From NCBI RefSeq assembly GCF_000026545.1, contig NC_011601.1: DNA of 64,000 bases; one strand, given 5' to 3'. Of the stretch, positions 50,041 through 51,321 are shown in pieces. A program made the translations under genes and the position numbers. The number at the start of each line of letters is the position of its first letter. Position 1 is the stretch's first letter. The notes beneath the pieces are model-generated. The model did no database searches and was not told the DNA's origin. It saw only the letters and a list, made by a program, of their open reading frames with translations. Source of the DNA: Escherichia coli O127:H6 str. E2348/69 (GTDB lineage Bacteria > Pseudomonadota > Gammaproteobacteria > Enterobacterales > Enterobacteriaceae).

Positions 50041-50472
50041 ATGTCTTACGCCACACCGGAACAGTTCATCAGGGCGTTCAGTGAACGCGAGGCGTGCACA
50101 CTGACGGATGAAGAGATGACCGGGCTTATCAACGAGGAAAAGCTGGCCTCCGCGCTTGCGCGTGCCAGTGCCCAGATTGATGGCTATCTGGTGGGGCGTT
50201 ACCGGACCCCGTGGCCTGACAGCCCGGGGATTCTGGTGGGTTACTGCTGCGATATCGCCCGTTATCACCTGGCGACCGATTACCGTATCTGCTCAGAAGA
50301 AATTCAGATGCGCTACCGGGACGCCATCCGCTTTCTGGAGAAAGTCGCGGCAGGACAAATCAACCTCGGGCGGGATACGTCCGGCAGCGTGATCCAGTCA
50401 TCGTCACAGGTGCGTATCCGCTCCGGCTCCCGTCAGTTCGGGCGTGAGTCCACGCGGGGAGGTGCATTCTGA
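50041..50472 (+). CDS. Head-tail connector-type protein (Mu gp36-like)
   Basis: 143-aa ORF; positional call. Confidence 0.45.
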   Translation: MSYATPEQFIRAFSEREACTLTDEEMTGLINEEKLASALARASAQIDGYLVGRYRTPWPDSPGILVGYCCDIARYHLATDYRICSEEIQMRYRDAIRFLEKVAAGQINLGRDTSGSVIQSSSQVRIRSGSRQFGRESTRGGAF

Positions 50473-50525
50473 TTACTGAAATTGAACGGGCGCTGGTTGA
50501 ACGTCTGCGTTGTGGTCTGGGGAAA

Positions 50526-51107
50526 ATGGTGCGGGAAGTCCGCACCTATGCCGGTGAACTGGATGAAGACCCGGGCCGGATTGTTCGCAGCCTTCCGGCA
50601 GCCTGGGTGACGTTCGGCGGCATCGCGAAAACCGAACGCTATTCCACGTCACGCCAGAAATACATTGCCACCGGACGCTTTGTGGTTGTGGTGGGTGATT
50701 ACAACACCCGCAGCGAACAGAGCGCCAGACAGGGAGGCACCGTCCGGGATGAAGTCGGGACAAACCAGCTGGTTGAATCCGTCCGTCGCCTGCTGACCGG
50801 TCAGGATTTGGGGCTGGAGATTGATTATTTCGAACCCGGGCGCGTCAGGACGCTGTTTAACACCGGCGTGGCAGAGCGGGCAATGTCCGTGTTTGCCTGT
50901 GAGTTTGATACCCGCTGGGTGGAGCACGCGCTGGAGAACGGCAAATGGCCGGAGCGCGGTGCAGAAGCGGATATGGTTTTCAACCGTTACCACGGCCGTC
51001 TGTCAGACCCCGACCCGGATTTACTGCGAATTGGTACGCAATACGGCGCAGATATCTGTGGTCTGGATGAATTAAGAGAGCAACAGCATGAACAAAATGA
51101 AGGTTAA
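50526..51107 (+). CDS. Head-tail region protein (Mu gp37-like)
   Basis: 193-aa ORF from the first ATG; frame is open upstream to 50448, so a non-canonical start near 50469 is possible. Confidence 0.45.
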   Translation: MVREVRTYAGELDEDPGRIVRSLPAAWVTFGGIAKTERYSTSRQKYIATGRFVVVVGDYNTRSEQSARQGGTVRDEVGTNQLVESVRRLLTGQDLGLEIDYFEPGRVRTLFNTGVAERAMSVFACEFDTRWVEHALENGKWPERGAEADMVFNRYHGRLSDPDPDLLRIGTQYGADICGLDELREQQHEQNEG

Positions 51108-51321
51108 GGCGGCTCCCGGGATGAAGTTCCCGATGGAGGATAACGCCCGGAAATACATCACCACGGAAGCGGTGATCGTTGAAAACACCGCTTATTACCG
51201 GCGCGCTGTTCAGGATGGTGACCTGATTCTGGTGGCTGAAGAGCCTGAAACGGCAGAACAGGACACCGGACCAGAAAAAGCGAAGGTGAAGAAAGAGAAA
51301 CAGGTGGGCTCCGATGAGTGA
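51088..51321 (+). CDS. Hypothetical small protein
   Basis: 77-aa ORF overlapping neighbours. Confidence 0.4.
   Translation: MNKMKVKAAPGMKFPMEDNARKYITTEAVIVENTAYYRRAVQDGDLILVAEEPETAEQDTGPEKAKVKKEKQVGSDE

Follow-up and report, generated by a model that had tools for sequence, protein, structure and literature searches.

A Mu-like prophage of Escherichia coli O127:H6 strain E2348/69 carries a tail terminator gene in which no ATG, GTG or TTG codon is present at the point where the homologous proteins begin. [quoted passage not shown] Alignment with homologues shows that the true N-terminus of the tail terminator corresponds to the CTG position, as far as sequence comparison can place it. We infer the decoding of CUG rather than the adjacent AUU, the coupling of initiation to gp36 termination, and any adaptive value of the low efficiency.

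The prophage and the gp36-gp37 junction

All positions refer to the window, by which we mean the whole stretch of 64,000 nucleotides that was analysed. Over this region the DNA shows 100% identity to strain E2348/69 of E. coli O127:H6, and the prophage that it contains is inserted in eutC, the gene for the ethanolamine ammonia-lyase beta subunit, such that one eutC fragment flanks each prophage end (~27945 and ~63660). The E2348/69 prophage has a full complement of phage genes, none of which is a pseudogene. These include early and lysis functions (repressor, transposase A and B, Mor and lysis genes), head functions (terminase, portal, protease, major head protein and adaptor) and tail functions (gp37, DUF2635, sheath, tube, tape measure, baseplate and tail fibres). 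Our literature search found no papers on the E2348/69 Mu-like prophage. The features relevant to the present analysis are as follows.

27945-63660 (roughly): Mu-like prophage of ~35.7 kb, inserted in eutC and splitting that gene
50041-50472, + strand: gp36-like head-tail adaptor gene (Pfam Phage_Mu_Gp36, 113.9 bits; PHROG head-tail adaptor; RefSeq 'gp436 family protein')
50458-50464, + strand: SD sequence GGAGGTG inside gp36, a 7-nt match to the 16S 3' end, with 6-nt spacing to the CTG at 50469
50469-51107, + strand: full tail terminator coding sequence (gp37-like, DUF1834), 212 aa, assigned from PF08873 (168.9 bits), an AF2 model and Foldseek
50469-50471, + strand: putative CTG start of the tail terminator, from the CTGA overlap with the gp36 stop, homologue N-termini and RefSeq NZ_LT827011.1
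50470-50472, + strand: gp36 stop TGA, read from the sequence
50472-50474, + strand: ATT (Ile 2), a second near-cognate candidate start, spaced 9 nt from the SD
50472-50525, + strand: codons 2-19, forming the first alpha-helix (AF2 helix residues 2-20), with E6 nearly invariant family-wide
50526-50528, + strand: internal conserved Met 20 (ATG), the first canonical start; relatives share this Met yet begin upstream

The first-pass annotation of this DNA had described a gp37-like frame that is open from 50448 but lacks an ATG before 50526, and that is preceded by a ribosome-binding site. Each of these statements is borne out by the sequence. An in-frame TGA at 50445-50447 leaves the frame open from 50448, where it translates as VHAGRCILITEIERALVERLRCGLGKMVR... 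and continues to the TAA stop at 51105-51107. A mechanical list of open reading frames gives the ATG at 50526 as the earliest ATG, GTG or TTG, and a ribosome-binding site is present as GGGGAGG at 50456-50462. The first canonical start of this frame lies 19 codons inside the conserved domain. The 26 open codons upstream of it are not significant alone, given that a run of this length is expected by chance in about 0.29 of random frames, and it is homology rather than open-frame length that raises the observation above chance. The same annotation called the locus a head-tail gene, a label that is too generic: the gene is that of the tail terminator, which caps the tail and docks it to the head adaptor.

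The final codons of gp36 (GGA GGT GCA TTC TGA) provide both the SD of the downstream gene and the overlapping stop. This stop/start overlap (CTGA, 50469-50472), together with an intragenic SD, constitutes a geometry for translational coupling, and the arrangement is kept family-wide as TTGA, ATGA or TGATG. No promoter or terminator was found between gp36 and gp37, and no stable RNA structure was detected at the junction when the fold of 50410-50530 was compared with those of shuffled sequences (z = +1.3). We therefore rejected a model in which an RNA structure hides the start site and enforces coupling, since the native fold is no stabler than the shuffled ones.

Two other parts of the prophage deserve comment. 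The neighbouring DUF2635 (Mu gp38-like) gene at 51088-51321 has two starts in RefSeq, namely ATG 51088, which yields 77 aa and a 20-nt overlap with the end of gp37, and ATG 51121, which yields 66 aa and is used in the E2348/69 record CP059840.2. The 77-aa product is matched by PHROG phrog_208 from the first position of the profile, and this points to the longer form as the correct one. At the right end of the prophage, 61940-63433 holds tail-fibre and tail-fibre-assembly genes on both strands and is reminiscent of an invertible region like the Mu G segment. The corresponding region of strain tcmA_3 holds fragments annotated as 'integrase'.

Identity and N-terminus of the tail terminator

The gene at 50469-51107 encodes the tail terminator, for which a hexameric ring is predicted by likeness to Mu gp37. 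Its product belongs to the PF08873 family (168.9 bits against a cut-off of 25, with profile positions 2-148 of 149 covered). The AF2 model of the 212-aa form has a pLDDT of 91.6 and a pTM of 0.82, and a Foldseek search of the PDB with this model returned Mu gp37 chains 9lj8_A and 9khy_1 as the top matches (E about 1e-8), followed by the pyocin R2 collar, T5 p142, lambda gpU and T4 gp15, all consistent with the tail-terminator fold. The functional assignment follows from cryo-EM of Mu, in which six gp37 subunits close off the tail tube and sheath as a hexamer and dock onto gp36, the dodecameric adaptor (PMC11915804).

The two proteins also share their genomic setting. The gene sits between the adaptor gene and those for DUF2635 and the sheath, in an order (gp36 adaptor, terminator, DUF2635, sheath) that matches Mu Mup36-Mup39, and both terminator genes have a tight stop/start overlap with the adaptor gene and N-termini that align residue for residue. 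However, identity to Mu gp37 (PF08873; PDB 9khy, 9lj8) is about 15%, the E2348/69 protein is 30 residues longer at its C-terminus, and Mu uses ATG in a TGATG overlap, in contrast to the CTG in CTGA found here. Both PHROG phrog_490 and Mup37 in the Mu RefSeq record (NC_000929.1) are labelled 'portal protein'. This label is a propagated mis-annotation, as the cryo-EM structure and the fold search show a tail terminator.

The first-pass annotation had proposed a start at CTG or ATT near 50469-50472, or else an N-terminus made through coupling to the upstream gene. Several comparisons favour this region, with residue 1 placed by sequence alignment on the CTG. In the Pfam Phage_Mu_Gp37 profile, position 2 aligns to the Ile codon at 50472, which puts position 1 on the CTG. 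A single-sequence search of the PDB gave no match, and a family profile built from 107 members was needed to reach Mu gp37. This profile matches chain 9khy_1 (PDB 9khy/9lj8, 'Probable tail terminator protein') with E = 2.7e-10, and Met1 of the solved Mu chain aligns to the CTG position.

Homologue N-termini agree with this placement. When the 212-aa protein was searched against 1.84 billion cluster representatives, 357 homologues were recovered, and the best 150 of these were scored for the location of the N-terminus. In 71 of the 150, the protein begins exactly at the CTG position; in 51 it begins further upstream (25 by 1-3 residues, 26 by more), and another 17 have extra unaligned upstream residues. 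Conservation, which the first-pass annotation had suggested locating by alignment, begins 19 codons upstream of Met 50526. Homologues that start at the equivalent of this Met, the observation named there as contrary to an upstream start, number two among the best 150, and both are fragments from the CTG clade that are 89-99% identical. No homologue outside the CTG clade starts at Met 20 among the best 150 of 357. The homologues therefore support the proposal of an upstream start rather than refute it.

The structural model is in keeping with the longer form. Residues 2-20 are predicted to form a single helix (pLDDT 98), such that a start at Met 50526 would remove helix 1 entirely, and the gp37 chain in the Mu virion is ordered from residue 1.

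Public annotations of this gene are divided. In NZ_LT827011.1, the 212-aa 'DUF1834 family protein' (WP_071791946.1) has a coding sequence that begins on the CTG. The identical sequence in NZ_CP059840.2 is annotated as a 193-aa 'phage protein Gp37' (WP_000251260.1) that starts at ATG 50526. Judged by product name, which tracked the start form without exception in the ten loci checked, about 33 of 54 RefSeq records use the CTG start, and the short ATG form accounts for the other 21 or so. The Met 50526 starts in RefSeq are probably mis-annotations. A CTG start is therefore already predicted by the NCBI pipeline, and the phenomenon is known; we found no paper in the literature that describes the CTG start or confirms it experimentally.

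Origin and fixation of the CTG codon

The start codon was examined in 60 related IMG/VR loci. All 21 loci with at least 89% amino-acid identity carry CTG, and in these the first canonical start lies 19 codons downstream. Each of the remaining 39 has a canonical start at or upstream of the position equivalent to 50469, including 13 with TTG exactly there and nine with TTG one codon upstream, all as TTGA, and the most distant loci carry ATG. The same TTGA is found in the species representatives of Morganella morganii and Providencia alcalifaciens, and Klebsiella phage ST405-OXA48phi1.1 (QBA84978.1) has an annotated TTG start, again within TTGA. A pattern scan of a genome collection matched three species representatives, each of which has TTG; this prophage is absent from the genome that represents E. 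coli. In a phage collection, a nucleotide search gave one weak match and a protein search gave seven distant phages. The close relatives occur as prophages, both in E. coli genomes and among IMG/VR sequences.

The TTG orthologues, which occur in Mu-like prophages of Morganella, Providencia and Klebsiella, share 52-87% amino-acid identity with the E2348/69 protein and have the same SD and overlap geometry. They differ at the start by a single base, and retain the canonical though weak TTG. By parsimony, these sequences indicate that TTG is ancestral for this branch and that CTG arose from it by a single T-to-C transition, a change that is silent in gp36 because TTT and TTC both encode Phe. We also considered whether the CTG clade had acquired a stronger SD in compensation. 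This was rejected, and no compensating change is visible, because the same 7-nt GGAGGTG is already present in members of the TTG clade. In the TTG clade, the codon after the start varies synonymously among ATT, ATA and ATC, and it is thus an ordinary Ile codon there.

The ancestral junction has a further peculiarity. Its sequence, GGAGGU-GCA-UUU-UGA (equivalent to window 50458-50472), is laid out like the prfB +1 frameshift site, with an SD, three nucleotides, a slippery codon and UGA. This layout of the TTG-clade junction could influence the efficiency of gp36 termination.

Every close relative sampled has CTG; these 41 comprise 10 E. coli loci from RefSeq (92-100% identical at the nucleotide level), 21 IMG/VR loci and 10 metagenome contigs, the last matched by a pattern that left the start-codon base free. 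As TTG or ATG is found beyond the clade, CTG is derived and clade-specific. The 29 assembled coding sequences represent 23 distinct sequences, all intact open reading frames, in which codons 2-19 are free of stops and indels.

In the CTG clade, the gene body has a pN/pS of 0.28 and codons 2-19 have one of 0.48; the corresponding values in the TTG clade are 0.44 for codons 2-19 versus 0.44 for the rest of the gene. Among the variable columns of codons 2-19 in the CTG clade, four are synonymous and two are non-synonymous, and both of the latter also vary family-wide, while the family-invariant residues E6, R12, L13, G16 and G18 are unchanged. With about four synonymous versus about four non-synonymous events (binomial P about 0.1), these sequences are no more than suggestive of selection on codons 2-19 in the clade.

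Prophages with the CTG occupy at least four sites, namely eutC, a site beside cbeA/cbtA, a site upstream of melA, and a 249-kb plasmid, and their hosts were isolated from human, chicken, swine, bovine, mouse, crow and soil sources. The varied sites are consistent with Mu-type transposition or repeated lysogenisation. They show past mobility, and say nothing of the production of infectious virions by the E2348/69 prophage of today. From this history it can be argued that phages with a CTG start stayed infectious, and therefore had a working tail terminator, which is required for an infectious phage. Given the intact open reading frames, the pN/pS of 0.28 and the four or more insertion sites, CTG is evidently tolerated.

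An unusual arrangement was noted in E. coli C5 (NZ_CP010122.1), where only a few bases separate the gp37 CTG from the end of an IS3-family element lying upstream of it (840-910 of the extracted locus). In this prophage remnant, gp36, the SD and everything upstream are gone, which leaves gp37 without an SD or coupling.

Proposed initiation at CUG and competing explanations

In the mechanism we favour, a ribosome that ends gp36 translation at the UGA (50470-50472) would sit over the CUG at 50469 and would be held there by the strong SD, GGAGGUG, at its optimal 6-nt spacing. Because of the CUGA overlap, ribosomes finishing gp36 would already be at the start site. Either these terminating ribosomes or newly recruited 30S subunits would then initiate with fMet-tRNA on the near-cognate CUG, a codon that derives from the ancestral UUG start by a change silent in gp36 and has since been fixed in the E. 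coli clade. Published evidence indicates that a 4-nt stop/start overlap with an intragenic SD gives tight translational coupling in E. coli (PMC6728339), that CUG initiates at about 1-2% of AUG in isolated reporters (bioRxiv 10.1101/063800), and that CUG initiation complexes are unstable because of the first-position C-U mismatch (PMC11497404). Ribosomes supplied on the spot by gp36 translation, in combination with the strong SD, may give enough gp37 for the six copies in each virion. A weak codon would be tolerable, and possibly useful, because a virion needs six terminator subunits versus twelve adaptor subunits.

Known systems resemble this arrangement in part. The ATGA coupling pairs hyfHI, astDB and menDH (PMC6728339) likewise have a 4-nt NUGA overlap, a strong intragenic SD with optimal spacing, and paired genes that encode subunits of one complex. 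However, these pairs have AUG in the overlap rather than CUG, and coupling is assigned here by geometry. E. coli infC and pcnB, which start with AUU, offer examples of a near-cognate start one position off AUG that is used by the initiator tRNA at low efficiency and is conserved in close orthologues. Their mismatch is at the third position, in contrast to the first-position mismatch of the CUG that appears to be used here, and this CUG is a recent derivative of UUG, restricted to a single clade of phages. Unlike in that comparison, we found no evidence of IF3-linked autoregulation for the tail terminator CUG.

Given that the AUU at 50472 directly follows the CUG, it must be weighed as the start itself, in which case the protein would be one residue shorter (fMet-Thr-Glu-Ile-Glu...) and the junction would read UGAUU, akin to the UGAUG of Mu. 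[quoted passage not shown] Nevertheless, we regard an AUU start as doubtful, because this codon is the one that serves as an ordinary Ile codon in the TTG clade, because the invariant Glu at family position 6 fits numbering from the CTG and not from the ATT, and because the 6-nt spacing of the CTG is nearer the optimum. CTG is the likelier of the two as the positional homologue of the ancestral start. A different possibility is that, since the TTG-to-CTG change, only a 193-aa protein has been made from ATG 50526, truncated but functional or else defective, with the 19 upstream codons persisting as a relic. This would accord with the ATG being the first canonical start, with its annotation in the short-form RefSeq records (including E2348/69 CP059840.2), with the weakness of CUG as a start codon, and with the limited support for selection on codons 2-19 within the clade. 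We find it quite improbable, however, as it would remove a whole helix from a compact fold, one that is predicted with high confidence and ordered in the Mu virion chain, and the ATG is preceded by only a weak SD-like GGGG with a 3-nt spacer. Moreover, synonymous divergence per site exceeds non-synonymous divergence in codons 2-19, the conserved residues and the frame are intact across the 23 unique sequences, the CTG clade went on spreading to new insertion sites, and those of the best 150 homologues that begin at Met 20 all belong to that clade.

A programmed -1 frameshift from gp36 into gp37 within 50448-50470, which would create an adaptor-terminator fusion, was also considered, given that the gp37 frame is -1 relative to gp36 and open for 22 nt alongside its end, and that the overlap contains a strong SD-like element, a known stimulator of frameshifting. 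This explanation is exceedingly improbable, and we rejected it. No slippery X XXY YYZ heptamer is present in 50440-50472, including the overlap GGG CGT GAG TCC ACG CGG GGA GGT GCA TTC TGA, and the overlap sequence varies in relatives, with the exception of the SD. In relatives, Mu among them, the two genes are separate and start independently at TTG or ATG, and gp36 and gp37 are separate chains in the Mu virion at 12:6, with the C-terminal arm of gp36 entering the portal (PMC11915804). A prfB-like +1 frameshift was rejected likewise, since the +1 frame (GAT TAC TGA) ends after two codons and therefore no extended product is possible.

Initiation at CUG thus remains our preferred reading, and it raises the question of whether the weak codon is itself an adaptive setting. 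Near-cognate reinitiation might fix the terminator:adaptor ratio near 6:12, or might make terminator synthesis sensitive to IF3 or to initiation fidelity late in infection. We offer this proposal tentatively and think it unlikely to be correct.

The CTG start is a small point, a modest example of an uncommon but understood phenomenon, and it involves no new mechanism. Its practical consequence is that the short form, including that in the E2348/69 reference CP059840.2, drops the first helix, and annotation as the 212-aa form is warranted. Only two E. coli genes, both with AUU, have a confirmed non-canonical start. The CTG clade and its TTG sister phages constitute a natural isogenic pair, one base apart, that could serve to measure the extent to which a near-cognate start is rescued by a strong SD and stop/start coupling. 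If the adaptive proposal were true, no natural gene of an E. coli phage with a functionally important CUG start would have preceded the tail terminator, which would also provide evidence that coupled reinitiation relaxes start-codon discrimination.
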